Assembly (NCBI GenBank): GCA_001804285.1
Contig: MHFR01000051.1
Coordinates: 46,926 to 110,925, forward strand
Direction: 5' to 3'
DNA length: 64,000 bases
DNA from: Candidatus Danuiimicrobium aquiferis
GTDB lineage: Bacteria; Omnitrophota; Omnitrophia; Omnitrophales; Danuiimicrobiaceae
Positions 39,909 through 55,900 of this stretch are shown piece after piece. Positions within the stretch are counted from its first letter, which is position 1. Each line of letters opens with the position of its first letter. The notes below the pieces were generated by a model that worked only from the letters and a program-made list of their open reading frames with translations, had not been told where the DNA came from and made no database searches. Both the position numbers and the translations under genes were made by a program.

Positions 39909-40493
39909 TTACTCATTTTGAGAGGCTTTAATCGCAATGGCCAGGTAATTAGCCACTGCTTTTTTCTTCAAATCGGCCGTTAACTGATTTCTGAAAGAAT
40001 CTGAGCCTTCATATTGCGTTCCGATTTTTTTATAATATTTTTGTAGGTCCTCATAACTCTTATCCTCGATGACGTTGATCTCTTTTCCGTCAGTATCATA
40101 CTGCCAAAGCGCTGCCTGAACGAAACCGTTTTCATCAACCGCACATTTTATGTAATAAGATCCTGCGCCACCCAAGTATGTAAATGCAGTCGAAAGCTCG
40201 TTCGGCGAGACAAAATACTTGCAATCTTTTCTATCGGCCAGAGAACCGTCCGCATACAGCGGAACAGGAATTTGTTCCCCGTTTCGCACTTTACCGGTCT
40301 TGATTGCAATAAAATTATTAATTTTTTGCGCAAGAATAGACTCTATGTTTCGATTTTCGGCGCTGTCCCGAGGTGCGGCCACTTCTTTAATTTCATTTCG
40401 TCCCAATAAAGGATTTTTCGCAAACGCTTCGGGCAACACGCATATTTGCGCTATTCCCGCAATCAGCATTATTTTAAATAAAACATTTTTCAT
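39909..40493 (-). CDS. Hypothetical secreted protein (signal peptide)
   Basis: MKNVLFKIMLIAGIAQICVLPEAFA looks like a signal peptide. No family was recognised. It is flanked by family-B repeat fragments. Confidence 0.5.
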   Translation of the reverse strand: MKNVLFKIMLIAGIAQICVLPEAFAKNPLLGRNEIKEVAAPRDSAENRNIESILAQKINNFIAIKTGKVRNGEQIPVPLYADGSLADRKDCKYFVSPNELSTAFTYLGGAGSYYIKCAVDENGFVQAALWQYDTDGKEINVIEDKSYEDLQKYYKKIGTQYEGSDSFRNQLTADLKKKAVANYLAIAIKASQNE

Positions 40494-40531: not shown

Positions 40532-41770
40532 TTAGGGTCTGACAATTAACATGCAACCCTCAATATCCATCCGGATTACTTTCAAAAAGACATCGTCTCC
40601 TTTAAAATTCACTTTATCAACAATTCCGCCATCATCGTCATAATCAAACGTCCCGTTACCGCCGACATTCAAAAGGTCGTAGCCTTGCCTGATGGATGCC
40701 TCTTGAAAACTGTCAAACATCAGCTTGTTTTCCGGATAGAAGATTTCTTGTCCTTTTATAACGGGGCTCCCATCCGCAATTCCCAGTTGCAATTTAATCC
40801 GCCAAGATTGCTGATCTGTTTTAGAATAAATCTTCAATTCGATCATCGCGCCTTCTCGAATCTCTGAGAAGTTGAGTAACTGAAGCGCCCGGATATCTTC
40901 ACTATTCGGAATCGGAAATTCTAAACCCTCTTTTAAAAGGATCCCTTGCCCCGATTTCCCCAGGGCCCTTACATTAATAAATGAATTTGATTTTCGTTCC
41001 AATTCTTTCCCGCGAAAGACGATGTTGCTTTCGACGGCAGTCACCTGGACCAACTGATTTGCGTCAAGGTGATCCTTGTCTTTTAATTCAAGGAGCCGGT
41101 CATACCCATCGTAATATTCGAAAGCAGCATCGGTGACATGAACGGAAGATCGATTCAAATCGAAATCAGCCACTTCGTCATTATAATGCCGGAAAATTGT
41201 GCTTTTTTCTTTGTCCCACTCATAACGCATAAGGGTTTCCGGATTTTTTCGATAATCCGGATGATAGGCAATCCGGACAGCATTTCCTTTTGAAATGGGG
41301 AATCCAAACTCGATCCATTCTTCCGTGCCGGAGTCACTTGTGTGAACAAAAGCTCTGTACGTATGAAACTCTGTTTCACCGCGAAATTTGACTTCGCCAA
41401 TAGGCGGCGCAGACCCTTTCCGAATCCGGTTGCTTAAATAAAACCGATTTCCTTTCGTCGGCTGATCGAACGCATCGAGCCACAAAGGAACGAAACTTAC
41501 CGATTTTTTTTGCGCATCTACTATTTCAACGGCATCTCGAAGGCCCTGAAGTTCGTAGTCACCTTCTGACATTCTTCGCGTCACATCTTCCGCCATTTTT
41601 GAAACAACCGCTTCTTCAATGGAATATCTCCATGCGGTAAGAGCCGTATCCAAAAGGCGCTCAATCCCAGCCGTCAATATCGACGCGATGGAAACGGCGA
41701 CCAAAACCTCAATGAGTGTTAATCCTTTTTCCTTGCGATCTGTTCTCATATTCCCCATGCAAGTCATCAT
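40532..41770 (-). CDS. Large pseudopilin (prepilin-type N-terminus; GspK-like size)
   Basis: ...RKEKG|LTLIEVLVAVSIASILTAGIERLL. Length is ~400 aa. The start is among several N-terminal Met codons. Confidence 0.6.
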   Translation of the reverse strand: MMTCMGNMRTDRKEKGLTLIEVLVAVSIASILTAGIERLLDTALTAWRYSIEEAVVSKMAEDVTRRMSEGDYELQGLRDAVEIVDAQKKSVSFVPLWLDAFDQPTKGNRFYLSNRIRKGSAPPIGEVKFRGETEFHTYRAFVHTSDSGTEEWIEFGFPISKGNAVRIAYHPDYRKNPETLMRYEWDKEKSTIFRHYNDEVADFDLNRSSVHVTDAAFEYYDGYDRLLELKDKDHLDANQLVQVTAVESNIVFRGKELERKSNSFINVRALGKSGQGILLKEGLEFPIPNSEDIRALQLLNFSEIREGAMIELKIYSKTDQQSWRIKLQLGIADGSPVIKGQEIFYPENKLMFDSFQEASIRQGYDLLNVGGNGTFDYDDDGGIVDKVNFKGDDVFLKVIRMDIEGCMLIVRP

Positions 41771-42171
41771 TATAAATCTTCGAGCAACGTCACAAAATCG
41801 ATGAGCGGTTTTTTCAAATTCTCAGCACGGAAAACCTCAATATGCATTTCAAGCGGATCGGTTCCACTTACCGGCCGGCGCAAAATCCGCCATTTCATAT
41901 CATTTAATTCAATGGGGGGCTTATCGACAGGAGGTTCCCAAGCTTCGCCCATCCGCATGAGTTGAGATTTAGAACCCCGGTAATTTTTGATATGTTCCAT
42001 GGCATTTCGTCCAAGCTGTGTCGCGATCCCAACTTCTGTATATTGAGATACCTCACTTACAGACTGTGTAAACATTTGCAGCAGAGGGACAAAACACAAT
42101 GCCATCAACGAAATAACAACAAGCATTTCAATATACGTAAAACCGCTTTCCGCCGTTCTAAATGCCTTCAT
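41770..42171 (-). CDS. Minor pseudopilin (GspI/J-like)
   Basis: MKAFRTAESG|FTYIEMLVVISLMALCFVPLL. The internal start is used because the ORF-track extension overlaps the next gene. Confidence 0.6.
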   Translation of the reverse strand: MKAFRTAESGFTYIEMLVVISLMALCFVPLLQMFTQSVSEVSQYTEVGIATQLGRNAMEHIKNYRGSKSQLMRMGEAWEPPVDKPPIELNDMKWRILRRPVSGTDPLEMHIEVFRAENLKKPLIDFVTLLEDL

Positions 42172-42535
42172 AAAAAATCCGGATTCTTCTTTGAATATCA
42201 TTGACTTCACCAATTCCGGTAATCGATAAGGTGTTTGGATCGTGAATCGCGAAATAGATTCCTTTTCCCAGTTTTCGCTTGGGAATCGATCCGAATCCAT
42301 CACCATCTCTGTCACGCATGGACTTGACCTCATTAATTCCGGCGGCAAGGCCTGCATCGGCCAAATAAAGAGCTTGAAGACGGTCCTCTTCCAAAGTCAC
42401 ATGAATCGACCGCTCATAAACCGCGCTGACTAACACTCCGCCATAAATTGCAAGCGTCGCCAAAATAATGAGAACGACGATAAGAATGGAGCCCGTTTCT
42501 GAGGATTTACCATTTTGACGGATTTTGTCCTTCAT
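42158..42535 (-). CDS. Pseudopilin-like protein (GspK-N-like hydrophobic N-terminus)
   Basis: GSILIVVLIILATLAIYGGVLVSAVYE ... ALYLADAGLAAGINEV. Length is 125 aa. Confidence 0.5.
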   Translation of the reverse strand: MKDKIRQNGKSSETGSILIVVLIILATLAIYGGVLVSAVYERSIHVTLEEDRLQALYLADAGLAAGINEVKSMRDRDGDGFGSIPKRKLGKGIYFAIHDPNTLSITGIGEVNDIQRRIRIFYEGI

Positions 42536-42956
42536 AATCTTCCCATGCCTTATCTAATTTTAAATCATAATTGACTACAACGTCTGCCTTATCCGTTAAA
42601 TAAAGCCAGCCGCCGGTGTTCGAAAAAGGCTGGTTGCTTGTCTGATTCTTTACGGTGTTATTTCCCCTCTTATCGGTGACTAACTCCGAAGGCATGGAAT
42701 TTAAATACGGTTTTTCAACCCCGACATCATTAAATGTTTGCGTCAAGAGCCCCTCCAATGTCTCGGGATATTTCCCCTCCTTCGCACGGAATAATGAAAT
42801 GCGATTCCGAAGCATGGAAAGATTGCTTTTAGTCGTTACCGCGCGGGCATCAATATCAAAACCGACAAAGTTTGGTACGATTGCCAACGCCAAAATGGCG
42901 ATAATCGCAACGACGATCAAAATTTCAATTAAGGTGAATCCAGATTTACGGGCCAT
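42507..42956 (-). CDS. gspG: Major pseudopilin GspG-like
   Basis: MARKSG|FTLIEILIVVAIIAILALAIVPNFVGF ... LSMLRNRISLFRAKEGKYPETLEGL follows the GspG pattern. Confidence 0.75.
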   Translation of the reverse strand: MARKSGFTLIEILIVVAIIAILALAIVPNFVGFDIDARAVTTKSNLSMLRNRISLFRAKEGKYPETLEGLLTQTFNDVGVEKPYLNSMPSELVTDKRGNNTVKNQTSNQPFSNTGGWLYLTDKADVVVNYDLKLDKAWEDYEGQNPSKW

Positions 42957-43350
42957 CGCTATCTACCTTTCTTTGGTAAGTTAAATAGTCTCTTGTTCCT
43001 TCCATCAAATAAACAGGATGAATGATGGGTGGTTGGGGATATAGAAAAGAAACAACCTCATAAGCTCCGACAGAAAATCTCCCGACAGTATTAAAAATAC
43101 CGCGAATGGGATCAAGCAGAATCATTTTGTCAATACGCGTTTCGACAAGCCCTGTTTCAACCGCTCGCGGCAATTCTAACGGTGAGTAAACAATGTTATA
43201 CAAACCACGCCCGAGCTTTTTTGCCGCTCGAAACACATAAAGATCCTTGCACCAACCGGTTGAACTAAACAAAAATAAAAAAAGCAAAAGCAATGAAATG
43301 AATTTATTTCCCAACCTTGCCATGAGACCGTTCCTTTCTATTATATTCAA
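42946..43350 (-). CDS. Hypothetical exported protein
   Basis: The N-terminus is hydrophobic (FISLLLLFLFLFSSTGW). No family was recognised. It is embedded in the secretion cluster. Confidence 0.4.
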   Translation of the reverse strand: MNIIERNGLMARLGNKFISLLLLFLFLFSSTGWCKDLYVFRAAKKLGRGLYNIVYSPLELPRAVETGLVETRIDKMILLDPIRGIFNTVGRFSVGAYEVVSFLYPQPPIIHPVYLMEGTRDYLTYQRKVDSDGP

Positions 43351-43364
43351 CCTGACCGATTTTT

Positions 43365-43492
43365 GTCATTCCCGCATGTTTTAGGCGGGAATCCATTGTA
43401 CCAATAGATGCTAATTGACTTATGGATCCCCGATTCCCTGGAAATACAGGGCCGGCCCTCGTCTTACCGAGGGAAAGCATTCGGGAATGACA
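43365..43492. repeat. Family-A repeat element (long variant), between the hypothetical gene and gspF
   Basis: GTCATTCCCGCATGTTTTAGGCGGGAATCC ... GGATCCCCGATTCCCTGG...CCCTCGTCTTACCGAGGG...CATTCGGGAATGACA. Confidence 0.75.
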
Positions 43493-43501
43493 CAACTCAA
43501 G

Positions 43502-44725
43502 TTACTGTTTAAAAACTTTGACCAAATTAAACACCGGCATCAAAACTGCCAATGCAATAAATCCGACGACAAATCCCATAAATAAGAGCAACAGGGGTTC
43601 CAGTGATGAAGATAAATTTCTAAGTGTGTATTCCAATTCTGTTTCATAAAACTTGGCAACTTCTCCCAGCATTTCGTCCAATTTTCCGGTATTTTCCCCC
43701 ACCGATACCATCTGTACAACCATCGGCGGGAAAATTTCTGCTTTTTGAAATAGTTCTGCCAAGTCTTTCCCTTGGCTTACGCCAATCCGGATTTGTTCAA
43801 CCGCAGCTTTCATGATGACATTGTTCAGAATACTTTTCGAAATATCAAGAGCCCTCAAAATCGGGATTCCGCTTTTGGTGAGCGCGCTCACGGTCCGCGT
43901 AAATCGCGCAATGACAATTTTCGTATAAAGTTCCCCAAAAACCGGAATCCGTAAAATGACGCCATCAAAAAAAGTCCGTCCTTTTTCGGTGCGGTAAAAA
44001 CCATTTAACAAAACAATTCCTGTCACAGTCAAAACGATAATTAAAAACCAAAACTGGCGAAAAAACGTGCTGGTGTTAAGCAAAATCATCGTGATGAAAG
44101 GCAACTCGCTGTTCGAAGCACGAAAGATGTCTAAGAATTTCGGCACAGCACCGATTAAAAGAAAACCGACCACAAAGAACGCAACACAAAGCAGGATAAT
44201 GGGATACGTAAACGCCGATTGGACCTTTGTCCGGATGTCGAGCTCTTGCATACCGATTTGTGCCAGGCGTTCCAGAACGTCGTCAAGAATACCCGCGGCC
44301 TCGCCGGATTCAATCATTCCGGTGTATAAATTCGAAAACAAATGCGGAAATTTACTGATCGCATCTTTAAACGACCGCCCTTTTTCAATGTCGTTTTTAA
44401 TAGTTTCAATAATGGCTTTAAATTTCGGATTGCGCTCCTGCCATGCAAGACTTTCCAATGCTTTAGGAAGAGGCAACCCTGAACGGACAAGGGTTGAGAG
44501 CTGTCGTGTGAAGTAGATCACATTTTCCCGCCGGACGCCTGATAGAATATCTTGAAGCTGAAAAAAAAGAAAATCTAATTGAGTGGCAGGTTCAATCGAG
44601 AGAACCCGGTACTTCCTTTCACGAAGCACTTCAATCAGCCCGGAACGGTCTTCTGCTCTCGCCACCCCTTTTATGGTTTTGCCGTACGTATCTTGAACCA
44701 CATATTTAAATGCATTCATAGGCAC
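43502..44725 (-). CDS. gspF: Type II secretion / type IV pilus inner-membrane platform protein (GspF/PilC family)
   Basis: Two GspF-type repeats and three TM segments over 407 aa, including LSTLVRSGLPLPKALESLAWQERNPKFK. Confidence 0.8.
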   Translation of the reverse strand: MPMNAFKYVVQDTYGKTIKGVARAEDRSGLIEVLRERKYRVLSIEPATQLDFLFFQLQDILSGVRRENVIYFTRQLSTLVRSGLPLPKALESLAWQERNPKFKAIIETIKNDIEKGRSFKDAISKFPHLFSNLYTGMIESGEAAGILDDVLERLAQIGMQELDIRTKVQSAFTYPIILLCVAFFVVGFLLIGAVPKFLDIFRASNSELPFITMILLNTSTFFRQFWFLIIVLTVTGIVLLNGFYRTEKGRTFFDGVILRIPVFGELYTKIVIARFTRTVSALTKSGIPILRALDISKSILNNVIMKAAVEQIRIGVSQGKDLAELFQKAEIFPPMVVQMVSVGENTGKLDEMLGEVAKFYETELEYTLRNLSSSLEPLLLLFMGFVVGFIALAVLMPVFNLVKVFKQ

Positions 44726-44740
44726 CGCAATTTAGTTGAT

Positions 44741-44875
44741 GTCATGCCCGCACGCTTAAAGCGGGCATCCACAGCTTCTGGATTCCCGCTTTCGCGGGAA
44801 TGACAAAGAAACATATGCCCTTTTACAGATAATTGCTTCAAAGTATTAAACAAATACAGTTATTTAGCCTTCTCT
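44741..44875. repeat. Family-A repeat element + conserved ~55-bp extension, between gspF and the secretin
   Basis: GTCATGCCCGCACGCTTAAAGCGGGCATCCACAGCTTCTGGATTCCCGCTTTCGCGGGAATGACAAAG, then ...CCCTTTTACAGATAATTGCTTCAAAGTATTAAACAAATAC. It is near-identical to 50770..50905. Confidence 0.8.
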
Positions 44876-46620
44876 TTTTTTCCTGCTTTTTTACTTTCGC
44901 GAGAAAATTGACGATCAAACGTTTTGGATAAATAAAGACTGTCGGGATAATTTTTTTTGAGTTTCTGCCACATCGCAGCCGCTTCTGCATGATTCATAAA
45001 AAAGTCAGCATACAACTTCCCAAGTTGATAATAAGCATCATCGGCCCATTCAGAGTCCGGATAATTTCTCGTGATCATCTTAAAGAAACCGACCGCTTCG
45101 CTATTCCTTTGATATTCACTTTTCCCCAATGATTCAATTCCATATTCCTCTAACAAGCGAACCCCCCGATTATATAAAGCCCGGGGAGACAGTTCATCCG
45201 AAACAGGCTTATTCTCTTCCGGTTTCATAGGCCGTACGATATAGGGGGTGATAAATACCGACAATTCGCGGGTCACATATTTGGTGCTTTTATTCCGAAA
45301 TGCTACCCCCACAAGAGGAATACTTCCTAAAATGGGGATCCTTTGCTGAATTACAGACTGGTCATGCCTCGTTAATCCGCCAATCACAACAGTTTGCCCG
45401 TTTTTAACCAGCACTTTTGTGGTAGCTTCCCGAGTATCAATTCGCGGGCCGGCATCGAGCGACTGATTTAACGAGCTCACCTCAGGATGTAATTCGAGTA
45501 AAATATCATCCCCGCCAACGACTCGTGGAATGACTCGTAAAGCAGTACCGATATCGATAAACTTAGTTGTTTCAGTTGTTCCCACTGCCGTTAATGTGTT
45601 TTCGCGAAACGGAAATTTTTCACCGATGATAATTTTTGCTTCTTCCCCATCGAGCGCGCAAATGGTCGGACTTGCGAGTAAAGATGCTTTATTTTTCCGG
45701 ATCAACGCATCAATCGTACTGGTTGCATGACCTTTCCCGAGCGTCAAGCCGTATTTCAGCTGTCCACCGGTTAAATCGGTAGAAGTTTCGGGCATCGATA
45801 GCGCAAAATCAGCTGAGTTATTTGTGGTTGTTGTCGTCGCGGTTGAAGCGGCTCCCGGCGGAAGATAGGTGCGCGCCCCTTCGGGTGTCCAATCCGATTC
45901 AATTCCCTTAAGCATACCTCGTAAATTCGCATTTCCAGTCCAAGTCACCCCCATTGCGGTTAAATCAGAAATTTCAACTTCAATCAGTCTCGCCTCAATC
46001 AATATCTGGTATGGCGCATGGTCTAATTTTTGGGCCTCTTCAAGAAGCGTTTTCATTTTAGTCGGCAAATCCCTAATGATTAACCGATTTTCTTCGTCTA
46101 CAGCTTCAATACTTCCCTTGTTACTCGAAAACGCCGACAACGACGTTTTAACAGAGGATGGTTTTACGTAGGTTACGGGAATAATTTCCGTCGCAAGTTC
46201 GTTTTCTGGCGCCACCACCGTAATAATATTATCTTTCACTCGATAGACATACCCTTTCGACTCCAAAATGAAATCCAGGGCATCCTCTAAACGGACATCT
46301 TTTAAGGTGATGGTGACGGTTCCCTTCACATCTTCTCCGGCTACGATATTTAAATCGAACGACTCCGCAAGCCCTCGTAAAGCGCCTCGAATATCAGCCT
46401 CCTGCACGTCCAATGAAATACGTGTATCTAAAATATTAACATTTTTTTCTTCTTTAATTTCCTCAGCGAAGAGGACTCCTGTTTTAACCTGGAATAGGCA
46501 TAACAATAGCGATAAAAACAATGGCAGAACTTTTCTTTGTCCCAAACAGACTGTTTTTGCAATGGTTCGCAAGAAGGATTTGATTTTTGCTTTGGATTTC
46601 ATTTCCATTGTTTTCTCCAT
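44860..46620 (-). CDS. Secretin (GspD/PilQ family) with C-terminal TPR-like extension
   Basis: The secretin C-domain is VVIGGLTRHDQSVIQQRIPILGSIPLVGVAFRNKSTKYVTRELSVFITPYIV. There is a signal peptide. The C-terminus YYQLGKLYADFFMNHAEAAAMWQKLKKNYPDS looks TPR-like. Confidence 0.85.
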   Translation of the reverse strand: MEKTMEMKSKAKIKSFLRTIAKTVCLGQRKVLPLFLSLLLCLFQVKTGVLFAEEIKEEKNVNILDTRISLDVQEADIRGALRGLAESFDLNIVAGEDVKGTVTITLKDVRLEDALDFILESKGYVYRVKDNIITVVAPENELATEIIPVTYVKPSSVKTSLSAFSSNKGSIEAVDEENRLIIRDLPTKMKTLLEEAQKLDHAPYQILIEARLIEVEISDLTAMGVTWTGNANLRGMLKGIESDWTPEGARTYLPPGAASTATTTTTNNSADFALSMPETSTDLTGGQLKYGLTLGKGHATSTIDALIRKNKASLLASPTICALDGEEAKIIIGEKFPFRENTLTAVGTTETTKFIDIGTALRVIPRVVGGDDILLELHPEVSSLNQSLDAGPRIDTREATTKVLVKNGQTVVIGGLTRHDQSVIQQRIPILGSIPLVGVAFRNKSTKYVTRELSVFITPYIVRPMKPEENKPVSDELSPRALYNRGVRLLEEYGIESLGKSEYQRNSEAVGFFKMITRNYPDSEWADDAYYQLGKLYADFFMNHAEAAAMWQKLKKNYPDSLYLSKTFDRQFSRESKKAGKKEKAK

Positions 46621-46653
46621 ATACTTTTATCTCGCCCGAGTTTTAAAAATGAT

Positions 46654-47502
46654 TTATGATTTCTTTTTGCTGAGCGCCAGAACGTATTCCGTACCGCTTT
46701 CCGAAAACCAAACGCCATCGCGTTCGATGCGAACTAATTTTTTGTTGTCAATCAGGGCCCCCACTGACACAATCTTCCCATCAATCAAAGCAACCGGTTT
46801 TTTTGTGTTCCACACAATCATGGTCACCTGATGATTCCCCGGGAGTGTATTATCACGCGGCTTATTTCCCAAAAGAAACGGGTCTTGTTTCGGCGGAACA
46901 ATCTGCGCGTCCGTTTCCTTGGCTTTTACTTTCGAATGACCGCTCAGAATCGAAAAAAGGTTAACGGTTACCAGAGGTAAAGGGTTCACCTCAGAATCGG
47001 ATTCCATGCTCAACGATTGCACGCCAAGGAGAATCTTTCCTTTTTCAATTCGTTCAAGGTACGACGCAACATCAGTGTACCCGCCATAAAACTTAACTTC
47101 GATGTGAATTGCATCAGCAATCCCGCCTTCTTCCGAACGCGCGATCGTGGGTTCTACGGAAACAAATTTTGTATCCAGCCCCTGAAACGCTGCCGTGAGT
47201 CCTTCGAGAAGCTCGGCCATATCTTTCCGTGAAGGTAGTTTATCTTCCATTTGTGTCACTTCTTCATTCATTTTATTAAACTCATCATACCGTTCCGAAT
47301 AAATTTTTTGATCCTTGTTATAGCCTTCTCTTTTGTTTTCCACGGTTTGCAATTCACTTTTTATCGCAAGGGTTTCCTGTCCTATTATTTTCTTTTTATG
47401 TTCGATCGGCTTCACAATGTTAGAAAAAAATACATAAAAGATAATCGCATAAAGCGCCAAGATAATCGCAGCTTGTGTATTCCTGCTCATTCGCACAACC
47501 AT
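46654..47502 (-). CDS. PilO/PilP-like (or GspM-like) bitopic assembly protein
   Basis: An N-terminal TM segment and a coiled coil precede a periplasmic domain. Position is between pilN and the secretin. Confidence 0.55.
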   Translation of the reverse strand: MVVRMSRNTQAAIILALYAIIFYVFFSNIVKPIEHKKKIIGQETLAIKSELQTVENKREGYNKDQKIYSERYDEFNKMNEEVTQMEDKLPSRKDMAELLEGLTAAFQGLDTKFVSVEPTIARSEEGGIADAIHIEVKFYGGYTDVASYLERIEKGKILLGVQSLSMESDSEVNPLPLVTVNLFSILSGHSKVKAKETDAQIVPPKQDPFLLGNKPRDNTLPGNHQVTMIVWNTKKPVALIDGKIVSVGALIDNKKLVRIERDGVWFSESGTEYVLALSKKKS

Positions 47503-47512
47503 TGTGTCGTCC

Positions 47513-48094
47513 TCAAATATTTTTTAGTTCAAATGAAATCTCGAAAAAAATAACACTTTCCTTGTTGACCGTATTCGATTCGGTCCGGACAAAAGTAGCG
47601 TTTGAAAAATACTCACTCTCATTTAAATTGGCGATGAATTTGCTCACATCGGCATTGCTATATGTTCCGCCGAACACTTGACACTTTGAAGTTTCCAATA
47701 TCAATTTATCCGCCCACGCCCGGTCCGGCAGTGATTGCTTGAATTCTGAAAGAATTTGTGACCATTGGGTTCGCGTCACATCTAATCGGGCTAATTGTTC
47801 GCGTTTTTTTCTTAAAACCACAATTCTGTCTTCAATATTTTTTAGCTGGTCGGCTGAACTTTGTTTCGTACTTTCGGCCTCTTCGATTTGGGCACTGATG
47901 TGACTTAGTTTTTCATCTACGGCCTGCTTCTTTTGCTTCCCATAGTTTAAACTAATGGTCGAGTAAATCGCGATCAAAGCCATAATCACAACAAGGACAA
48001 CAGCCCCTATCACCGCCTGCATCAACAGCCCTGACTCAACAAGAGCTTTTTTTCCGGATGCGAACTCTGGTGGTATCAGATTAATTCTTTTCAT
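47513..48094 (-). CDS. pilN: PilN-like (GspL-periplasmic-like) bitopic protein
   Basis: MKRINLIPPEFASGKK ... plus a TM segment and a coiled coil. The INLLP-type N-terminus is the PilN signature. Confidence 0.7.
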   Translation of the reverse strand: MKRINLIPPEFASGKKALVESGLLMQAVIGAVVLVVIMALIAIYSTISLNYGKQKKQAVDEKLSHISAQIEEAESTKQSSADQLKNIEDRIVVLRKKREQLARLDVTRTQWSQILSEFKQSLPDRAWADKLILETSKCQVFGGTYSNADVSKFIANLNESEYFSNATFVRTESNTVNKESVIFFEISFELKNI

Positions 48095-48136
48095 GATTTC
48101 TGCTTTTTCCTTTTTGCTTAAAACTTATAACCCTCT

Positions 48137-49420
48137 TCATGGCATACCCAGTCCAAATGGTAATATTGCCCATTCGTCTATTTTCAGGGCTAATCCTAAT
48201 GCGACCGGTGAAAGTGTTTTCTTTTTATCAAAGCCATTCAGGGTTTTAAATTTCTCATCAAGGTGGTACGGTTTCCATAAATCGATCGGGTTGATATCTA
48301 CATTCAAACTTCCACAAACATATTCCCTGAAACCGGTCATGTCTGAACTGCCGCCTAATAGATAGGCCCGATGAACTTTCCCACCTTCGGATCCAACTTC
48401 TTTTGAGAATGAAAACTGAAGTGAGCGGTTCACTTCTGCTAATAATTTATTTATTTCGTCCAAGAGTACCCCGCTTACAGCGAAAGCTTCATCGCTTAAA
48501 TTCGATTCCTTAATTCCCGCTTTAGAGATAGCCGACAAACCATAAGTCTTTTTTAACTCTTCTGCTTTTGAAAAATTGCAGTTTAATTTTTCGGAAAGTG
48601 CTACCGAAAACCGGTTTCCGGCTATCGGAATCAATCGCCCAAATAGGATGCGTTGACCTGCAACAATTAATAAGCTGGTGAAACGCGCTCCAACATCAAG
48701 AATGACGACACGTTCATTTTTTTCCCAACGCTCTGTCCTGAGCAGCGCTTGCCAGCTTGCCAGCGGATTGGTTTCGATAGAAAGGACGCGAAAGCCCGCG
48801 CTTTGAACGACTTCAAATTGACGATAGATTAATTCTCGGGGTATTGCTACCAAAAAAAGTTTTTGAATGCTGCTCGCATTATCGGAATTCTGTTCAGGAA
48901 TATAATCAAAGAAATTGGTTTTAGGATCAATCAAGTGTTGATCGCTCATCTCTTTTTTGATCGATTCCCGCACTTCCTCATTTGTCCCTTTAGGCACTGC
49001 CATCTCCCCCAGAAAGACAGATTGATCATAAACACTAATTCCCACGCGTGTCTTTGGTTTTATCCTCGAAGAAATTTTAACTAAACAATTAACCACTTCT
49101 TTCATGGGATCCTCAGGCTGGCTGCCGTCCGATAATTTTTGAAGGGGTTCAACCTGATAATCTTTAATGCAGATCCCTTTACTTTTTTTGCTGAGAAGGA
49201 TAAATTTAATAGAATCCCCACCGACATCAATCCCCGCAAATTCATTGTGATAAACCGCATTCTCAAACCCTGCCCGTATGGCTTGAAAAAATCCGGGCCC
49301 GCTTTTTAAAGGGGTGCTTTCAATAGATTTTGAGCCTTCCTGTTTTTTCAGCTTTCCCGAAGTGTCAGGATCAAATATCCGCGAAATCAGCTTCTTTGAA
49401 TCAATTCGATTTTGTGACAA
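48137..49420 (-). CDS. pilM: PilM-like actin-fold ATPase (GspL-cytoplasmic-like)
   Basis: FAGIDVGGDSIKFILL ... is an actin-like ATPase fold. There is a ~60-aa N-terminal extension. Confidence 0.75.
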   Translation of the reverse strand: MSQNRIDSKKLISRIFDPDTSGKLKKQEGSKSIESTPLKSGPGFFQAIRAGFENAVYHNEFAGIDVGGDSIKFILLSKKSKGICIKDYQVEPLQKLSDGSQPEDPMKEVVNCLVKISSRIKPKTRVGISVYDQSVFLGEMAVPKGTNEEVRESIKKEMSDQHLIDPKTNFFDYIPEQNSDNASSIQKLFLVAIPRELIYRQFEVVQSAGFRVLSIETNPLASWQALLRTERWEKNERVVILDVGARFTSLLIVAGQRILFGRLIPIAGNRFSVALSEKLNCNFSKAEELKKTYGLSAISKAGIKESNLSDEAFAVSGVLLDEINKLLAEVNRSLQFSFSKEVGSEGGKVHRAYLLGGSSDMTGFREYVCGSLNVDINPIDLWKPYHLDEKFKTLNGFDKKKTLSPVALGLALKIDEWAILPFGLGMP

Positions 49421-50321
49421 GGGCCAAAACCTCCTCGGCTAACTGCTGATACTCAATCGCGCCCAACGAAGTTGGCGCATACGTGATCACCGATTGCTGG
49501 ACCATCGGTGACTCAATTAATTTCACATTGTTGTGAATGACCGTCTTGAACATTTGACTTCCGAAATAATCCCTCAGCGCATGTAACACTTCTTCTGCGA
49601 TTTTGATCCGCTTATCATAAAGGGTCGCAAGAATGCCCAATGTCTCGAGTCCGGGATTAAATTGCTGTTTAACGGATTCGATGGTCCGGAAAAGCTCCTT
49701 CATGCCTTCCAACGCATAATAATGAGTCTGCACGGGAATTAAGACTTTTGATGCATAGCACAATGCATTTAATGTCAATAAATTCAATGTCGGAGGACAA
49801 TCTAATAAAATGAAATCGTAATGTTGCTGAACATTCTGCAATTTAGACCGAAGGGCTTGCTCTCCTGCTTGTATATCGGCCAGCTCAAGTTGCGCGCTTG
49901 CCAAACGGCTCGCAGAAGGCAAAATATGAAGCCCCGGAATCTGACATGGCCGCATCACATCCCCAAAAACCACATTGGGATTGACAAGCAGATCGTAAAC
50001 CGATCGCTGCAACTTATCAACAGATACGCCAAGCCCTAATGTCGCATGTGCTTGCGGATCTAAATCCACCACCAAAACCTTTCCACCCTTTATGGCCAAA
50101 GCAGCGCTAAGATTGACAACCGTTGTGGTTTTCCCGCAACCGCCTTTTTGGTTCATCACAGTTATCGTCACGGGCCGGCTTCCCTCCGGAAGTCCAAAAG
50201 AACTTTGAAGATCTCGCTTTAACTCCCCTTCACGGAGCCACCCAAAAATACTTCTGAATTTGAACCCTGCTTTTTTTGGGGGTTCCTCTGTAGAAATCGT
50301 ACTCTCCAGTAATTCACTCAT
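49401..50321 (-). CDS. ParA/MinD-family P-loop ATPase
   Basis: The deviant Walker A is NQKGGCGKTTTVVNLSAALAIKGGKVLVVDLDPQA. The internal ATG overlaps the merR stop (ATGA). Confidence 0.75.
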   Translation of the reverse strand: MSELLESTISTEEPPKKAGFKFRSIFGWLREGELKRDLQSSFGLPEGSRPVTITVMNQKGGCGKTTTVVNLSAALAIKGGKVLVVDLDPQAHATLGLGVSVDKLQRSVYDLLVNPNVVFGDVMRPCQIPGLHILPSASRLASAQLELADIQAGEQALRSKLQNVQQHYDFILLDCPPTLNLLTLNALCYASKVLIPVQTHYYALEGMKELFRTIESVKQQFNPGLETLGILATLYDKRIKIAEEVLHALRDYFGSQMFKTVIHNNVKLIESPMVQQSVITYAPTSLGAIEYQQLAEEVLALVTKSN

Positions 50322-50605
50322 ATGGAATCCTCCTTGGAACCCTTGACTTTCAATGCAGCCGCGCACAGTGTATAGCCTTCGTTCAAAAGCTGCTTAATCC
50401 GCAGCAATACGTTAATATCTGATTGCGAAAACCTTCTATATTCATACGAACCGAATTGTTCATAAATGGGCTTAACGATTCCAAGCTGTTCCCAATAATA
50501 AAGTTGCCGGCTTGAAACTCCAACGAGCTTTGCTGTCGAAGAAATACTGTAGTACAGCGCACCTGAATGGACTATGTCTAACATCTGTTGCAAATTTTGC
50601 GTCAT
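50318..50605 (-). CDS. MerR-family HTH transcriptional regulator, minimal (95 aa, no effector domain)
   Basis: YSISSTAKLVGVSSRQLYYWEQLGIVKP is a MerR-type HTH. Confidence 0.7.
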   Translation of the reverse strand: MTQNLQQMLDIVHSGALYYSISSTAKLVGVSSRQLYYWEQLGIVKPIYEQFGSYEYRRFSQSDINVLLRIKQLLNEGYTLCAAALKVKGSKEDSI

Positions 50606-50769
50606 AATAGTTAACCTTTTGTTTTACAAGTATGTCTATGGTTTGACATCCTTGTTATATGCGTGAATCGACCGAAGGCAGAGAAACTTTATTGATTTTT
50701 ATTTGAAATGGGGTGTTTACCCGGAGGCTGCCATTGGTAATTGTTTAGCGTTCTGAAGTGGCAAACACG

Positions 50770-50905
50770 CCAGGTTCGTGTCATGCCCGCATGCTTAAGG
50801 CGGGCATCCACAGTTTCTGGATTCCCGCTTTCGCGGGAATGACAAAAAATCAGAGGCCCTTTTACAGATAATCGCTTCAAAACGCTAAACAAATACTGCC
50901 ATTGA
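50770..50905. repeat. Family-A repeat element + conserved extension, between merR and gspE
   Basis: GTCATGCCCGCATGCTTAAGGCGGGCATCCACAGTTTCTGGATTCCCGCTTTCGCGGGAATGACAAAA ... CCCTTTTACAGATAATCGCTTCAAAACGCTAAACAAATAC. Confidence 0.8.
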
Positions 50906-50920
50906 AGTGATTACTAAAAT

Positions 50921-50967
50921 CCCCTCACCCCTACCCTCTCCCCGTGGGAGAGGGTAGGGGTGAGGGC
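50921..50967 (-). terminator. Perfect 21-bp-arm GC-rich palindrome directly 3' of the gspE stop (candidate intrinsic terminator / family-C repeat)
   Basis: CCCTCACCCCTACCCTCTCCC cgtg GGGAGAGGGTAGGGGTGAGGG. On the minus strand it is followed by ATTTTAGTAATC. Confidence 0.4.
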
Positions 50968-50974
50968 AACCGGA

Positions 50975-52681
50975 CTACGAGTCCTGTGTCACTCTCAGGA
51001 CCTCGTCGATGGTGGAAACGCCCTGCTGGGCTTTGAGGAGGCCTTCTTCTTTTAAGGTTTTCATGCCAAGCGCAATCGCTTTTCTTTTAATGACTTCCGC
51101 GGATTCTTTTTTAACAATAGACGCGCGAATATCATCCGTTGGAACCATGAACTCAAATATGCCCGTTCTTCCCTGATAACCCGTTCCTTTGCATCGGTCA
51201 CAACCGACCTTTTCATAGAACTCGGATTTAACATTCTTTGCTCCGATGTGACCGCTCACTTCCATTAATAATGCTTTTTCAGGGAGATACGGTTTTCTGC
51301 AATGAGTACACAGCTTACGAACAAGCCGCTGCGCGATGACACAGCTTAGAGATGACGAAATCAAAAATGGCTCGACCCCCATATCAAGCAACCTGGTAAT
51401 GGCTGCCGGCGCATCGTTGGTGTGTAAGGTGCTTAGCACCAGATGCCCCGTCAATGCGGCTTGAATGGCAATCGTTGCCGTTTCCAAATCACGGATTTCA
51501 CCGATCATAATCACATCGGGATCCTGTCGCATAATCGAACGCAATCCCTTGGCGAAGGTCAACCCGCTTTTCAGATCAATTTGTGATTGCCGGACTCTTT
51601 CCAACCGGGACTCAACCGGATCTTCTAAGGTAATGATATGCTTCTCGACGGAATTAATTCGGTTTAAACAAGCGTATAACGTGCTTGTTTTTCCGCTACC
51701 GGTCGGACCCGTGACTAAAATAATTCCGTGCGGATATTGAAGGATTTTTTCGAATTGAATCAATGCCTGTTGCTGCATCCCGAGATCCTCAAGCGAAATT
51801 ACAGACTCTGACCGGTCCAAGACACGGATGACCACATTTTCACCATAAATGGTCGGGAAGGTGGAGATACGAAGATTCACGTCTCTATCTTTCATCTGAT
51901 ATTGAATCCGTCCGTCTTGAGGCAGCCGTTTTTCGGCAATATCCATATTGGCCATAATTTTGATGCGGGAAATAATTGACGATTCCATCGATTTCGGAGG
52001 CAGGGGCGAATAATCGTACAAAACCCCGTCAATCCGGTAACGCACGTACAATGCCTTTTCCGCAGGCTCCAAATGAATATCGCTTGCATGATTTTCGAGT
52101 GCTTTTTCAATCAGTAAATTGACAATATTAACAGCGGGCGCATTCTGGGTTGATTCGCCTATGATTTTATCTTTCGATTCTCCGGAAACTGAACCGCCAT
52201 CTCCTCCGATTCCACGGATGGCTTTCCCAAGATGATCTTCCGTCCCAAAGAGTTGATTGATTTTTCGGAGAATGGCTTCTTCATCGGAAAAAACCGGAGA
52301 AATTTCGCACTTGGCATATTGTCCGAGGCGGTCGAGCAGAACGACATCAAGAGGATCAATCATGGCCATAGTCAAAACGTTCTTTTCTTTTTTGATCGGT
52401 AAAACTTTGAAGTAACGGATTAATTTTTCAGGAATCAATTTAATCGTTTCGGGATCAAGAGAAGGAATTTGATCCAAATCAAGGAATGAAATGCGGTAAA
52501 ATTCACTGATCAGCTTAAGAACTTCTACTCGGGAACGACCTTCGAGACACGGCAAAACATCAATAAAACGTTTTCCTGCTTTACCGCGTTCTTCAAAAAG
52601 CTTGTCTTTTTCGGGTTGCGTTAACATATGCCCCGAGGAAAGTTTTTCTTTCAGATACGTTTCTAATTCCTTTTCAATCAC
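50975..52681 (-). CDS. gspE: Type II secretion / type IV pilus assembly ATPase (GspE/PilB family)
   Basis: N-terminal MshEN-like domain, Walker A GPTGSGKTSTLYA, the Asp/His boxes, and the tetracysteine motif CTHCRKP...CDRCKGTGY. Confidence 0.9.
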   Translation of the reverse strand: MIEKELETYLKEKLSSGHMLTQPEKDKLFEERGKAGKRFIDVLPCLEGRSRVEVLKLISEFYRISFLDLDQIPSLDPETIKLIPEKLIRYFKVLPIKKEKNVLTMAMIDPLDVVLLDRLGQYAKCEISPVFSDEEAILRKINQLFGTEDHLGKAIRGIGGDGGSVSGESKDKIIGESTQNAPAVNIVNLLIEKALENHASDIHLEPAEKALYVRYRIDGVLYDYSPLPPKSMESSIISRIKIMANMDIAEKRLPQDGRIQYQMKDRDVNLRISTFPTIYGENVVIRVLDRSESVISLEDLGMQQQALIQFEKILQYPHGIILVTGPTGSGKTSTLYACLNRINSVEKHIITLEDPVESRLERVRQSQIDLKSGLTFAKGLRSIMRQDPDVIMIGEIRDLETATIAIQAALTGHLVLSTLHTNDAPAAITRLLDMGVEPFLISSSLSCVIAQRLVRKLCTHCRKPYLPEKALLMEVSGHIGAKNVKSEFYEKVGCDRCKGTGYQGRTGIFEFMVPTDDIRASIVKKESAEVIKRKAIALGMKTLKEEGLLKAQQGVSTIDEVLRVTQDS

Positions 52682-52971: not shown

Positions 52972-55900
52972 TTATTTCTTTTCCGGCGGTTTCATTTCAG
53001 CCGGCATTTCTTTCCATGTAACAATCCTCAAATTCCGGCTCCCGACGGATCCGAAATTAATAACGCCCCTCTTTTCAGAAACAGTGACGGCCGATTCCGG
53101 CATCACAGCCGCACCCACGTAAATCGTTTCAACGGCCGAAGATTTCATCTCGAAAGTACAAACTCCATTTTTCATCACAAATTCCGTTTGCTTTGGCAGC
53201 GTTAACGACGGAAGCAGCGAATCTCCGGTTTGCCCGACCGGCTTTCCTTCCGGCAAATAATATTGAACTGTCACACGCGTCGAATCGGTTTTAATCACTT
53301 GCCCCTTGGAATCAACCACCTTTATCGTCACCTTCACCGGCTCGTTCAGCGCTCCGTAAGACGATTCAATCACGATAGTCGCTTTAACCACCTCTGCTTT
53401 AGGAGACGATTCTCCCTCGGCATCAGCATCCTCGGCTGTAATTGAAAACTCAGGCAAATCTCCGGGCCCGATGATGTTGAAAACGTGGATCCCCTGATCA
53501 GAACCTGTAAATTCATATTCTTCGGGTAGCCCCAACTCGACTCCGGAAGATAGTCCAATCTTCCCGGCATAGTTCGTGATTGCCTGATTATTGAAATCAA
53601 ACGCACTCACGGTTGCCGTGAATTTCTCTCCGTCATAATAAGTATAAAGATCAGCTTGTGCCCGCGAAGCATCCGCCGGCTTTGAAAGCTCGATCTGAAA
53701 CTTGGAAGCAACAAACGAGACGGATTCGGATGTTCCGAAAAGCAATTCCGGATATTGTGTATCGATTACTTTCAAAGATACTTCCCCCCAGGCGTTAAAC
53801 CGGTTGGTCAATGTAACGGTACCGTTTGATATTGAACTCAAATTGGTTACGGCAAGATTTTCGACTGTTCCGCCGTCTTCAGTCACAACCGTCACATCTG
53901 CTGCGCCGTCATAATTCGAAGTCACTTCCCCGCTTTGATTTACCGCCGTCACCGTCATTTCAAAATCTTTCCCGACGGCGAATGATTTTTCATCTACCAC
54001 CACTTTATATTCATACGGAATAACCGTGAGATTTCCCGAGACGCCCTTAATCACCCCGTCCGCGCTGTCACTTGCCAGCACTTGAATGATTCCGGCATCG
54101 TCATATTGAAGCGAGGCCGTGGCAATCCCGCCTGAAAAGTTGGACACGACGGCCGGCACGAACTGCTTGGTCCCGGCCGTAGGGTTAATATATTGCACTC
54201 CCAAATTGGCCGTTCCGCTGTAAGACACAACCGCTTTATTTCCGCCCGCCCCGGTTTCAACAGCAGAAATCCTTACATCAAACGGCGTGCCGGCTTTTAC
54301 CAGTCCTTGAGTGAGAAGTTCTATCAAATAACTCACTGAACCAAAAGTCACCGTATCCGTGCTGGTATCCGTACTGTCATTCGAATCCGTATAGGTCACC
54401 GTCACCAAATCTCCTCCGCCGCTCACCTCAAGGGTCCCGTTATCTACATGCCCCGTCCGGTTTTGTACGGTCGGAAATGGATTATACGGTACGGAACTCG
54501 TATTGATGAAAATACCGCTATCGACATCGCTTTCAAGCAAGTTAATTTCCTCAGAATCGCCTGTTGCCGGATTGCTCACCGTTACTTTGATCGCATCTTT
54601 AACTAACGGATCCCGATTCCGGTCCGCATCCAGAACTTTCACATAGACATAGTCACCGATCGAATAATTCGACACTTCGATTCCGCTCACATTCACAAAA
54701 TGGATCTCCGATCTGGTTGAAGTCACAGTAATTTCACTTGATAAAACGGGGGCGATTAAATCATTCCCGACCAGTTCCGCTTTCAATTTAATCACGCCGC
54801 CTTCGTTGTAAGACACGTTTGAAAAAGTGGCCACACCGCCGGTGACGGTGATCGTGTTATCTTCATCGAGTGCACTTGATGACAAAGTCCCCGGAGCTAC
54901 GGTTGTTCCGTCCGAAGCCAAAACTGCCGTCAGCTTAATCCGGGAGATTGAATCCGAAGAAATGGCGTTTCCGGCTTCGTCCAAGATCGAAACCACCGGC
55001 TGAGTCGTAAATACACTTCCAGCAAAAATCGATGCCGGGGCCGGTGCGGTCGAAAACTGGATTGCCGAGGCGGTCAGTGAACCGACCACAAGATCTAAAT
55101 CATAATCGGCGCTTCCCGTCGAATCATACGTCCCGTCACTTGCATCCAAAGAGACCGTTTCGGCAGTATAGAGCGTTACATCCGTTTCCGCCTTACAACT
55201 TCCTCCGCCGCACAGAAAATCCAGCAACGTCGAAGAGCCGATATTGACCACAATCCCGTTCTTGTCCCGCGCAAAAGGCGTTTTCCCGTTCGTTGCCGTC
55301 GGGCCGCTAAACGTAATGGATTTTTCCCCGGAATAAGTCGCTAAAATCGGAACGCCGCCATTGTCGTATGGCGTGACGCGGACCGTTATCGTATTTCCGC
55401 TTGCGATCGTTCCCGGACTCGTAGACGTCACCACGAAATGGTCGAGGGATTGATGGAATAGCCAATTCGTATTATTTCCCGAATTGGTACCGCTATAGCA
55501 ATCAATTATTTTTTCCGATTTTTGATCTTTGACGTCCACATCGAAACACGCAAACGTTCCTGTTCCGGACCACAACCGCTGAACGCCTTCCACCGTCGAC
55601 CGGATTTTAATTACATCGGAATCTCCGCCGCCGGAAGCGCCGCCCGCGCCGTTCAGACTCACTGTTCCCGCATTCACGAGCCCGCCTTCACCGATCGTAA
55701 TGGTGGCTTCGTCCGATGAACTGCCGCCCGCATGGGTCCATGCGCCGTCTGTTTCAATCACCACTTTATAAGCATTTAACTCAACATTTTCCTCCTGAAC
55801 CAGTTCGCCGTCTAAAATGGTGAGTGTCCCATTCACCACCAGATTTTTTGTGGACACATTCACATCGTCCGCATCGCCAACGCCTGACTTTTCGATCACT

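Follow-up and report, generated by a model that had tools for sequence, protein, structure and literature searches.

Omnitrophota are widespread, uncultured and ultra-small bacteria that are believed to live on other cells. Genomic evidence on their lifestyle comes mainly from two sources, pili and giant genes, and both have been surveyed previously. Type IVa pilus (T4aP) loci have been reported in most Omnitrophota (Seymour 2023, PMC10066038), and genes resembling those of type II secretion systems (T2SS), together with pilus genes, have been reported beside giant genes (West-Roberts 2023, 10.1101/2023.11.21.568195; 2026 preprint 10.64898/2026.06.07.730766). The text of West-Roberts 2023 makes no mention of PilM, PilN, PilO or ParA. 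T4aP systems are paraphyletic, and 'generic' systems with mixed profile matches exist (Denise et al. 2019, PMC6668835). At the survey level, it is already known that loci of T4aP and T2SS-like types adjoin giant genes in Omnitrophota. Here we examine one such locus on a 64,000-nucleotide stretch of DNA, hereafter called the window, from Candidatus Danuiimicrobium aquiferis (contig MHFR01000051.1, positions 46,926 to 110,925), a species of the class Omnitrophia that is represented by a metagenome-assembled genome (MAG) of about 3.0 Mb (Seymour et al. 2023, PMC10066038). The locus is a gene cluster at positions 40532-52681 of the window, in which all genes are co-directional on the minus strand. 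Its secretin shares 100% identity with a protein of Omnitrophica bacterium RIFCSPLOWO2_12_FULL_44_17, the MAG to which Seymour et al. gave this species name.

This cluster probably encodes one complete, lineage-specific type IV filament machine that is built on the T4aP plan and that recurs in Omnitrophota MAGs and in some others assigned to Planctomycetia or the Planctomycetes-Verrucomicrobia-Chlamydiae (PVC) group. The machine is a distinct, divergent lineage within the part of the superfamily that holds T4aP, T2SS and mannose-sensitive hemagglutinin (MSH) systems, and it is not a chimera. Its PilO-PilP fusion, the tetratricopeptide repeat (TPR) tail of its secretin, its ParA/MerR pair, and the conserved C-terminal peptide of the neighboring giant protein go unmentioned in the Omnitrophota papers checked.

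The argument for a single machine comes from its recurrence. A secretin alignment was scanned against one genome per GTDB species, which yielded at least 80 related loci (designated here by L numbers), and jackhmmer searches with the window proteins against all open reading frames (ORFs) of these loci provided the component assignments and gene orders. About 80 species-level loci conform to the consensus order MerR-ParA-PilM-PilN-PilO-secretin-platform-g-k-i-(j)-ATPase, with the ATPase gene at the 3′ end in most loci and at the 5′ end only in the window clade (L011, L014), L050 and L086. Because one gene set in one order recurs in so many species-level genomes, we read it as a single, vertically conserved machine lineage rather than as a mix of two systems. 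A preliminary description, prepared from the letters of this DNA, had called the cluster a hybrid of T2SS and T4aP machinery. What survives of this label is a divergent lineage with component scores intermediate between those of T4aP and T2SS models; the notion of a chimera of two systems does not. Within the window, Pfam was run on every ORF of at least 110 aa, and NCBIfam on the cluster and both pilin loci (the second of which is discussed below). The co-directional machinery cluster proved to be real, with its ATPase, PilM, PilN, PilO, secretin and platform genes matched by Pfam, and the pilM-pilN-pilO-secretin synteny is present. The idea of a type IV filament machine with partly T2SS-like and partly T4aP-like components is likewise supported.

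The components that would align the machine across the envelope resemble the PilM-N-O-P subcomplex of T4aP systems, and PilM_2, PilN and PilO all score above their gathering thresholds. PilM (48137..49420, minus strand; 427 aa, PilM_2 1e-20) is a cytoplasmic actin-like protein that is extended by about 60 aa at its N terminus, and its best matches in the PDB are Thermus and Myxococcus PilM, with no match to GspL. PilN (47513..48094, minus strand; 193 aa, PilN 1e-12) is bitopic, and its N terminus, MKRINLIPPE, includes the sequence INLIP, an INLLP-type PilM-binding motif. In T4aP systems, this type of motif is the site by which PilN binds PilM. In 23 of 68 related loci (e.g., L019, L020, L023, L034 and L035), the two proteins are fused into a single polypeptide of about 620 aa whose topology is GspL-like, and in the rest they are split. 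The alternation of split and fused forms is a within-lineage example of the transition from PilM plus PilN to a GspL-like protein.

The gene for PilO (46654..47502, minus strand; PilO 9e-8 over residues 72-172) encodes a protein that is about 80 residues longer than usual, and the additional C-terminal portion (residues ~215-280) forms a beta domain resembling PilP and the HR domain of GspC. When a profile of this region built from 50 orthologues was compared with 177,635 PDB sequences, it matched GspC 7oio (1.2e-3) and GspB 4wfw (4.4e-3), as well as the GspC HR entries 2lnv and 3oss and the PilP of Myxococcus xanthus. PilO used alone as the query found no homologue besides itself, and a 36-sequence profile yielded only 6 proteins, so the AlphaFold2 (AF2) model of PilO, with a mean confidence (pLDDT) of 72, rests on a shallow alignment. 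This model comprises a PilO core and a six-strand beta domain, and Foldseek aligns it both with PilO (3jc8_O, 2rjz) and with PilP (3jc8_P, 2lc4, 2ivw) at probabilities of 0.94-1.0. All 69 distinct full-length orthologues of PilO have sufficient length for the C-terminal extension, and its motif was seen by eye in nearly all of them. The agreement between profile and predicted-fold matches argues that the PilP/GspC module that binds the secretin N0 domain is present and fused to PilO.

The secretin (44860..46608, ORF extending to 46620, minus strand; 582-586 aa) carries STN, Secretin_N, Secretin and TPR_6 (528-561) matches. Its AF2 model (pLDDT 82) places an N0 domain at residues 67-136, one N-ring domain at 143-199 and the barrel at 205-462, followed by a TPR tail of five helices (477-585) that is modeled at a pLDDT of 94-98. 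The C-terminal TPR extension had been noted previously, and both the TPR_6 match and these confident helices confirm it. Neither the model nor the domain matches contain AMIN domains, an N1-N3 series or an S-domain. Thus, where GspD of a T2SS has N0-N3 and an S-domain, this protein has N0, one N-domain and a TPR tail at its C terminus. NCBIfam scores are 242.6 for PilQ (TIGR02515; cutoff 284.35), 204 for GspD (TIGR02517; cutoff 351) and 113.6 for MshL (cutoff 250.2), and the best PDB match to PilQ reaches 135 bits compared with 106 for GspD. In 10 related loci, a separate protein with coiled-coil and TPR regions is encoded directly after the secretin in place of the fused tail. This fused-versus-split, Rosetta-stone-type arrangement argues for a functional link between the TPR module and the secretin. 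PilF and Tgl are known examples of TPR pilotins, and weak BamD-like and CpoB-like matches were also obtained. By analogy, this suggests a role for the module in piloting or anchoring the secretin.

When the secretin model was searched with Foldseek, the V. cholerae PilQ was ranked first, followed by GspD structures. This PilQ serves in competence, and one might propose that the machine is a competence pilus or pseudopilus that takes up DNA for nucleotide scavenging by a nanobacterium with a reduced genome. The minor pilins described below are small, like those of Com systems, and give weak N-terminal matches to ComGC, ComGE and ComGF; moreover, competence pili without PilT exist (Denise 2019, PMC6668835). 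However, the Foldseek ranking does not distinguish PilQ-type from GspD-type secretins, the 64-kb window contains no comEA, comEC or dprA, and the recurrent neighbor of the cluster is a large surface protein rather than a set of DNA-processing genes. We consider a role in competence highly improbable.

By model score, the motor and platform lean slightly toward T2SS. The assembly ATPase (50975..52681, minus strand; 568 aa) is of the PilB/GspE type, with T2SSE (3.4e-138, 461 bits) and MshEN (2.4e-16) matches, the latter corresponding to an N-terminal MshEN-fold domain, and it carries a tetracysteine motif. Its NCBIfam scores are 593 for GspE (TIGR02533; cutoff 630.25) and 578.6 for PilB (TIGR02538; cutoff 675.65), and its best PDB matches are the Geobacter and Myxococcus PilB proteins at 436-440 bits over the full length, compared with 407 for GspE. 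The inner-membrane platform protein (43502..44719, ORF extending to 44725, minus strand; 405 aa) is of the PilC/GspF type, with two T2SSF repeats (1e-62). It scores 375.9 with GspF (TIGR02120; cutoff 424) and 341 with PilC, and M. xanthus PilC (270 bits) is the only full-length platform match in the PDB. Both proteins score slightly higher on T2SS models (593 vs 579 and 376 vs 341), and the secretin scores higher on PilQ (243 vs 204). GspE and GspF are the top-scoring models for the motor and platform, and both scores fall under the curated cutoffs.

These scores bring forward the proposal that the cluster is a divergent T2SS, in which a short GspG-like endopilus would act as a piston that pushes folded periplasmic proteins through the secretin, with hydrolases or the large or giant neighbor protein as candidate cargo. 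West-Roberts et al. interpret loci of this kind as T2SS-like. The best PDB matches of the HR-like domain on PilO are GspC and GspB, the PilM-PilN fusion in relatives is GspL-like, PilT is missing from the surroundings of all of the roughly 80 loci, and the major pilin has no disulfide and a borderline T2SSG match. However, the best PDB matches of the core components are PilB, PilC, PilQ and PilM. The secretin has an N0 and one N-domain rather than the N0-N3 series, and PilM, PilN and PilO are encoded separately, with an INLIP motif of the T4aP type. No GspC, GspL or GspM arrangement is evident, since the HR-like domain occurs only as a fusion to PilO and no PDZ domain is present. The putative apex pilin, at about 110 aa, is much smaller than GspK, which has about 300 aa and an alpha-domain. 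In addition, we know of no precedent for a protein of about 1 MDa being pushed through a secretin. On this evidence, we judge a divergent T2SS to be somewhat unlikely.

The pilins bear on the same choice. The major pilin (42507..42956, minus strand; 149 aa, N_methyl 3.6e-8) begins with MARKSG/FTLIE, which includes Glu5, and it contains no cysteine; the disulfide-bonded D-region typical of T4aP is consequently lacking. The earlier 'GspG-type' label fits its N-terminal helix and a T2SSG score of 21.1 bits that barely exceeds the gathering score of 21, but not its score with TIGR01710 (46.7), which is far under the cutoff of 88.85. Indeed, all its NCBIfam matches are limited to the N-terminal helix. 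Three minor pilins follow on the minus strand, none of which reaches the cutoff of any member of the GspH-I-J-K set. Minor pilin k (42158..42535; 125 aa), whose N terminus G/SILIV was read from the sequence, lacks Glu5 as do the PilK/PilX/GspK-type apex subunits, yet it is very small: its orthologues never have Glu at +5 (0 of 53) and have a median mature length of 110 aa. Minor pilin i (41770..42171; 133 aa, G/FTYIE) has orthologues that retain Glu5 in 32 of 35 cases. The large minor pilin j (40532..41770; 412 aa, N_methyl 2e-7, G/LTLIE) is maintained at about 400-600 aa across related loci.

The cluster had been described as holding four pseudopilins plus gspG, and this count needs to be corrected. 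The ORF at 42946-43350 was rejected as a pseudopilin owing to its Sec-type signal, its TIGR04073 match (55 bits versus a cutoff of 50) and its lack of a class III signal and GFxxxE motif, which leaves only four pilin-like genes (149, 125, 133 and 412 aa). Instead, the gene (42946..43323, minus strand) encodes a small secreted protein of 125 aa whose family recurs in the cluster in several sub-lineages at variable positions. The last gene of the operon (39909..40493, minus strand) encodes a 194-aa secreted protein, here called z, that has no family match in the Pfam and NCBIfam scans and is confined to the window clade, where it occupies the same position in L006, L007, L009, L010 and L011. A different, conserved secreted protein of about 150 aa (motif ...WTGDGD..W.D..NW...) lies between the last minor pilin and the large neighbor protein in 11 loci, including L030, L032, L046, L048, L049, L061 and L086, and is absent from the window.

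Several points weigh against our assignment of the cluster to a pilus-type machine on the T4aP plan. As noted above, the ATPase and platform score slightly higher on T2SS models, and every curated equivalog cutoff (PilB, PilC, PilQ, PilM, GspE, GspF, GspD and GspG) is missed. A cysteine-free major pilin with a weak T2SSG match would fit a secretion pseudopilus equally well. The related loci were chosen by secretin similarity, and their frequencies are therefore valid for this secretin family and not for the whole phylum. Record titles among 80 loci name Omnitrophota or Omnitrophica in about 51 cases and the PVC group in 2, and 21 are titled Planctomycetia or Planctomycetales instead of Omnitrophota. 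The roles that we assign to ParA and MerR below are drawn entirely from synteny and analogy. Finally, a retraction ATPase and a prepilin peptidase are absent from the window: the Pfam annotation found neither a PilT-type second ATPase nor a Peptidase_A24 protein, which upholds the earlier statement that PilT/PilU and PilD/GspO are missing there, and PilT is also absent from the 10 kb past the left end of the window. Among the 80 related loci, no ATPase paralogue of PilT size was found within 10 kb on either side of the cluster, and clustering of the unassigned ORFs, made without a peptidase profile search, revealed no recurrent multi-TM peptidase family. Without these proteins near the cluster, a dynamic pilus is unproven. 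T4aP genes are normally scattered, however, with the peptidase often shared between systems or encoded elsewhere and PilT frequently lost (Denise 2019, PMC6668835), so their absence from one window says little.

Overall, the cysteine-free major subunit, the single locus, the absence of PilT from its vicinity and the PilM-PilN fusions of relatives lean toward T2SS, whereas the architecture, with PilM, PilN, a PilO-PilP protein and a short PilQ-like secretin, is T4aP-like. The comparison of GspL/GspM with PilM/N/O and of GspD with PilQ, which the preliminary description had put forward as a check, gives the same picture: there is no GspL match and the N-domain count is PilQ-like, and the scores themselves are undecided. 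We therefore retain the T4aP plan as the probable basis of the machine.

Two genes between the ATPase gene and pilM were overlooked in the preliminary description. One (50318..50605, minus strand; 95 aa, MerR_1 5e-14) encodes a minimal MerR-family protein consisting of a bare winged helix-turn-helix (HTH), for which the PDB matches are the N-terminal domains of GlnR and CueR. The other (49401..50321, minus strand; 306 aa, AAA_31 2e-57) encodes a ParA/Soj-like P-loop ATPase with the Walker A sequence NQKGGCGKTT and an N-terminal extension of about 52 aa, and it is closest to chromosomal Soj (205 bits with T. thermophilus Soj). The MerR stop codon and the ParA start codon overlap (ATGA), and the 3′ end of the ParA gene overlaps pilM by 20 nt. 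These overlaps indicate that the genes from MerR through at least pilM form one translationally coupled unit. Sites resembling sigma-70 promoters occur at chance levels, with 20 found and 24 expected in shuffled sequences.

The association is not peculiar to the window. Among the 59 related loci with enough upstream sequence, ParA lies directly upstream of pilM in 44, and MerR is upstream of pilM in 35. Most ParA orthologues from other related species begin with the peptide MF(E/D)D(L/F)K.FF followed by a variable linker of 20-40 aa, and the corresponding peptide has diverged in the window clade (FKFRSIFGWLR). Judged by their Walker A and N-terminal peptide sequences, the ParA-like proteins of the cluster are a recognizable subfamily. 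ParA/MinD ATPases that place envelope machines are known, as exemplified by TadZ/CpaE, BcsQ and FlhG, and a literature search found no description of a ParA-like gene inside T4aP-type operons. By analogy with these proteins, the ParA/MerR pair most likely positions or licenses the machine, and the MerR-like protein could be either a partner of ParA or a regulator of the operon.

The preliminary description also drew no link between the cluster and the giant gene that ends (at 52972) 291 nt upstream of the ATPase gene. The window holds the 3′ 11 kb of this gene (52972..63966, minus strand; the last 3,664 codons), and the longer contig shows that the full-length protein has 9,218 aa. This protein contains Ig-like repeats and a high proportion of T, G, S and N residues, and Pfam finds almost nothing in it. 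Large ORFs in the same orientation directly follow the cluster in related loci, where they belong to family 0 in 23 cases and to family 1, which includes the window protein, in 17. These ORFs often exceed 1,000 aa and are clipped by the locus end, and NCBIfam finds nothing for them. The extreme C terminus of the window protein reads ...RGVINFGSVGSRNLRIVTWKEM..., and a common signature, G.V.FG(R/S).G..G(I/L)....(M/V)(W/T)(R/K)E(L/M), ends it as well as 11 of the 12 family-1 members with a visible C terminus (e.g., ...GVINFGSVGSRNLRIVTWKEM in the window, ...GAITFGRAGKTGINQLMWRELKNK in L086 and ...GQVRFGRIAKSGIGTSLWREIKKIFE in L036). A phmmer search with the last 150 aa of the giant protein against 1.84 billion representative sequences returned only 11 matches, in five of which the module forms the extreme C terminus. 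A Pfam DUF6701 match (3e-13) in one family-1 member, which would suggest homology to MshQ, was not reproduced on the window protein and was not used.

Tip adhesins of known pili offer a possible explanation for this neighbor. PilC/PilY1 docks on the tip complex by donating a C-terminal beta-strand to the Glu5-less PilK-type pilin, and the same is predicted for MshQ (PNAS 2026, PMC13533445). PilC/PilY1 and MshQ are encoded directly after the minor pilins, and GspK of T2SS carries the strand in cis (PMC13533445). Perhaps the giant and large neighbors in Omnitrophota are filament tip proteins of the PilY1/PilC/MshQ type, deployed by a machine that is placed by the Soj-like ParA and MerR. The C terminus of the giant protein would then complete the beta-sheet of the tiny Glu5-less k by beta-strand addition, and the machine would export a megadalton adhesin or effector and keep it attached to the tip of a host-aimed fiber, while the dedicated Soj-like ParA and its MerR-like partner would place a single machine in cells of about 0.2 µm. 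That k never has Glu5 and has a mature length of only about 110 aa makes this proposal attractive. We regard it as unlikely at present. If true, however, it would provide a direct function for bacterial giant proteins and for this variant of the pilus.

From the gene and domain content, the fusions, the synteny and the conservation, we infer a more general model for the favored T4aP-type machine, its interactions and its functional link to the giant protein. The PilB-like ATPase would drive the PilC-like platform, and PilM would dock on the INLIP-bearing N terminus of PilN. PilN and PilO would span the inner membrane, from which the PilP/GspC-HR-like domain fused to PilO could reach the N0 domain of the short PilQ-like secretin, with the TPR module perhaps acting in cis as a pilotin or anchor. 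Polymerization of the 149-aa GspG-like major pilin on a tip complex of three minor pilins, with k at the apex, would give the filament. The Soj-like ParA and the small MerR-like HTH protein most likely position or license this assembly as TadZ/CpaE does in tight adherence (Tad) pili. The resulting filament may be a surface or trans-envelope fiber for contact with host or prey cells that acts together with the neighboring large or giant surface protein.

Related cluster ATPases provide one indication of how such a machine could be controlled. One or two MshEN-type motifs for binding cyclic di-GMP (c-di-GMP; xLGxxLLxxGxIxxxxLxxxLxxQ) are present in 30 of 35 of these proteins, and none is found in the ATPases of the window clade (window, L011 and L014). 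Their loss makes direct control of the window ATPase by c-di-GMP doubtful, and we have accordingly weakened the candidacy of this protein as a c-di-GMP sensor for this clade. The loss of both motifs in these three loci coincides with the move of the ATPase gene to the 5′ end beside the giant gene. Elsewhere in the window, two adjacent and overlapping genes for GGDEF diguanylate cyclases (13190-14602 and 14596-16086, minus strand), one with a GAF domain, are flanked by an LptD-like gene and a gene for a MalK-like ABC ATPase. An Rfam search of the window found no c-di-GMP riboswitch, its only hits being two tRNA genes on the minus strand (27345-27417 and 36891-36964; 68.5 and 68.9 bits).

The ATPase gene had been described as being set apart from the rest of the cluster by a palindromic hairpin and a repeat element, and both were borne out. 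The hairpin (50922..50966, minus strand) begins 9 nt past the ATPase stop codon and has a perfect 21-bp stem (arms 50922-50942 and 50946-50966) with a 3-nt loop, a fold energy of -56 kcal/mol and a z of -7.4; it is followed by GATTTTAG. It is a terminator-like or RNA-stabilizing element directly after the ATPase gene. Equally strong hairpins of unrelated sequence lie 3′ of the ATPase gene in L011 (-39) and L086 (-61), and the stem-loop is therefore a conserved feature of this position rather than a chance palindrome. The repeat element is an insert (50737..50896) resembling a miniature inverted-repeat transposable element (MITE), with 22-nt inverted repeats (50737-50758 and 50875-50896) around a 116-nt core. 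A diverged third copy of the repeat arm occurs in an intergenic gap at 32232-32253. A 67-aa ORF in the insert (50689-50892) has no family match in the Pfam annotation and is probably spurious rather than a gene.

The core of the insert also holds ATTCCCGCTTTCGCGGGAAT, a palindrome resembling repetitive extragenic palindromic (REP) elements. The form ATTCCCGC-N(4-9)-GCGGGAAT has six copies in the window (1708-1727, 6695-6714, 43368-43392, 44782-44801, 50821-50840 and 52839-52863) versus 0 expected in shuffled sequences. Four of the six copies are located in gaps of the cluster, namely giant/ATPase, ATPase/MerR, secretin/platform and platform/TIGR04073 gene. These palindromes may serve as punctuation of the operon mRNA.

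A second pilin locus (19961-27289, plus strand) lies elsewhere in the window. It encodes four tandem paralogous major-type pilins with 29-64% identity, minor pilins resembling I, J and H that have E5, and a 1,064-aa protein with a Glu5-less, K-like pilin N terminus for which NCBIfam finds nothing. The locus has no machine genes, and its proteins have no family matches beyond the N-terminal helix. The rpoN gene (18265-19701) is directly upstream, and a scan for the sigma-54 promoter consensus gave no signal (28 matches vs 26.6 expected). It is conceivable that the cluster machine assembles both its own pilins and this plus-strand set at 19.9-27.3 kb. In favor of such sharing, the plus-strand locus is without machine genes, neither the window nor the following 10 kb holds another machine, and the wide and narrow pili of Thermus are made by one machine (PMC7203116). 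However, other Omnitrophota contigs (L008, L073 and L082) carry a second, classical pilC-pilins-pilMNOPQ cluster, which makes a dedicated second machine elsewhere in the genome at least as likely. Moreover, the plus-strand minor pilins have no homologues near the cluster in any of 88 related loci. We therefore doubt that the two sets share one machine and consider this quite unlikely.

A cluster of sugar-nucleotide and glycosyltransferase genes (247-10967) continues for 10 kb past the start of the window (L089), where only glycosylation genes are found. RmlD-like, GDP-mannose dehydratase-like and several GT2 genes are part of it, as are genes for a PMT-family mannosyltransferase, a radical SAM protein and methyltransferases. 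Its products might modify the pilins or the giant protein.

The present findings replace a vague 'T2SS/T4P-like' annotation with specific hypotheses on host attachment and on the deployment of giant proteins. These hypotheses are based on a single conserved unit, its fused secretin-binding and TPR parts, its ParA/MerR pair, and the large neighbor with a C-terminal peptide that most often adjoins it.

Among known systems, the Tad pilus is similar in that its operon, too, encodes a ParA/MinD-superfamily ATPase, TadZ/CpaE; we propose that the ParA-like protein of the window places its machine. This protein differs in being Soj-like, in lacking a receiver-like N-domain, and in its short conserved peptide at the N terminus and its MerR-like partner. 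The machine is otherwise not of the Tad type: of the components TadA, TadB/C, RcpA and Flp that define that pilus, the ATPase and platform instead match the PilB/GspE and PilC/GspF families, and the secretin scores 70 bits with RcpA versus 135 with PilQ. The pilus-like cluster Amuc_1098-1102 of Akkermansia, a member of the PVC superphylum, includes a PilM-PilN fusion (Amuc_1101) like that in a third of the related loci, and PilM and PilN of the window both match its model. Structurally, the PilO core resembles Amuc_1100, and the secretin Amuc_1098 is a weak match. However, the scores in this comparison, which covered PilM, PilN, PilO and the secretin, are far under the family cutoffs (92 vs 650 bits).

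The MSHA pilus resembles the window machine in the MshEN domain of its ATPase, in the order of a PilM-like gene, the secretin and a TPR module (MshN), in having an extra NTPase, and in the very large protein (MshQ) that is encoded beside its minor pilins. In contrast, the secretin of the window favors PilQ over MshL (243 vs 114 bits), the extra NTPase is ParA/Soj-like and not ExeA-like as is MshM, and the c-di-GMP motifs of MshEN are degenerate in the window clade; the machine was accordingly not assigned to the MSH pili. With T2SS, the machine shares a GspE/GspF-like motor and platform, a GspG-like major subunit without cysteine, an HR-type domain of the kind that contacts the secretin N0, its confinement to a single locus without a retraction ATPase, and relatives with a fused PilM-PilN of GspL-like topology. 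It differs from T2SS in lacking a PDZ-bearing GspC as well as GspL and GspM as such, and in having a secretin without N1-N2 and the S-domain and three minor pilins rather than four, with no GspK alpha-domain.

The T4aP systems of Myxococcus, Pseudomonas and Thermus share with this machine a PilB-like ATPase with an MshEN-fold domain, a PilC-like platform, separate PilM and PilN proteins with the INLLP-type motif, PilO, a PilP-like domain, a secretin with N0 and one ring domain, the gene order pilM-N-O-(P)-Q, and a set of minor pilins that includes one without Glu5. Here, by contrast, PilP is fused to PilO, the secretin has a C-terminal TPR tail and no AMIN domain, the major pilin has no disulfide-bonded D-region, the apex pilin is tiny, and PilT/PilU are not nearby. 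Also unlike T4aP, the operon includes ParA-like and MerR-like genes, and the whole system is encoded in one locus. With PilM and PilN either split or fused and an HR domain carried on PilO, the cluster is a natural intermediate between the T4aP and T2SS architectures.

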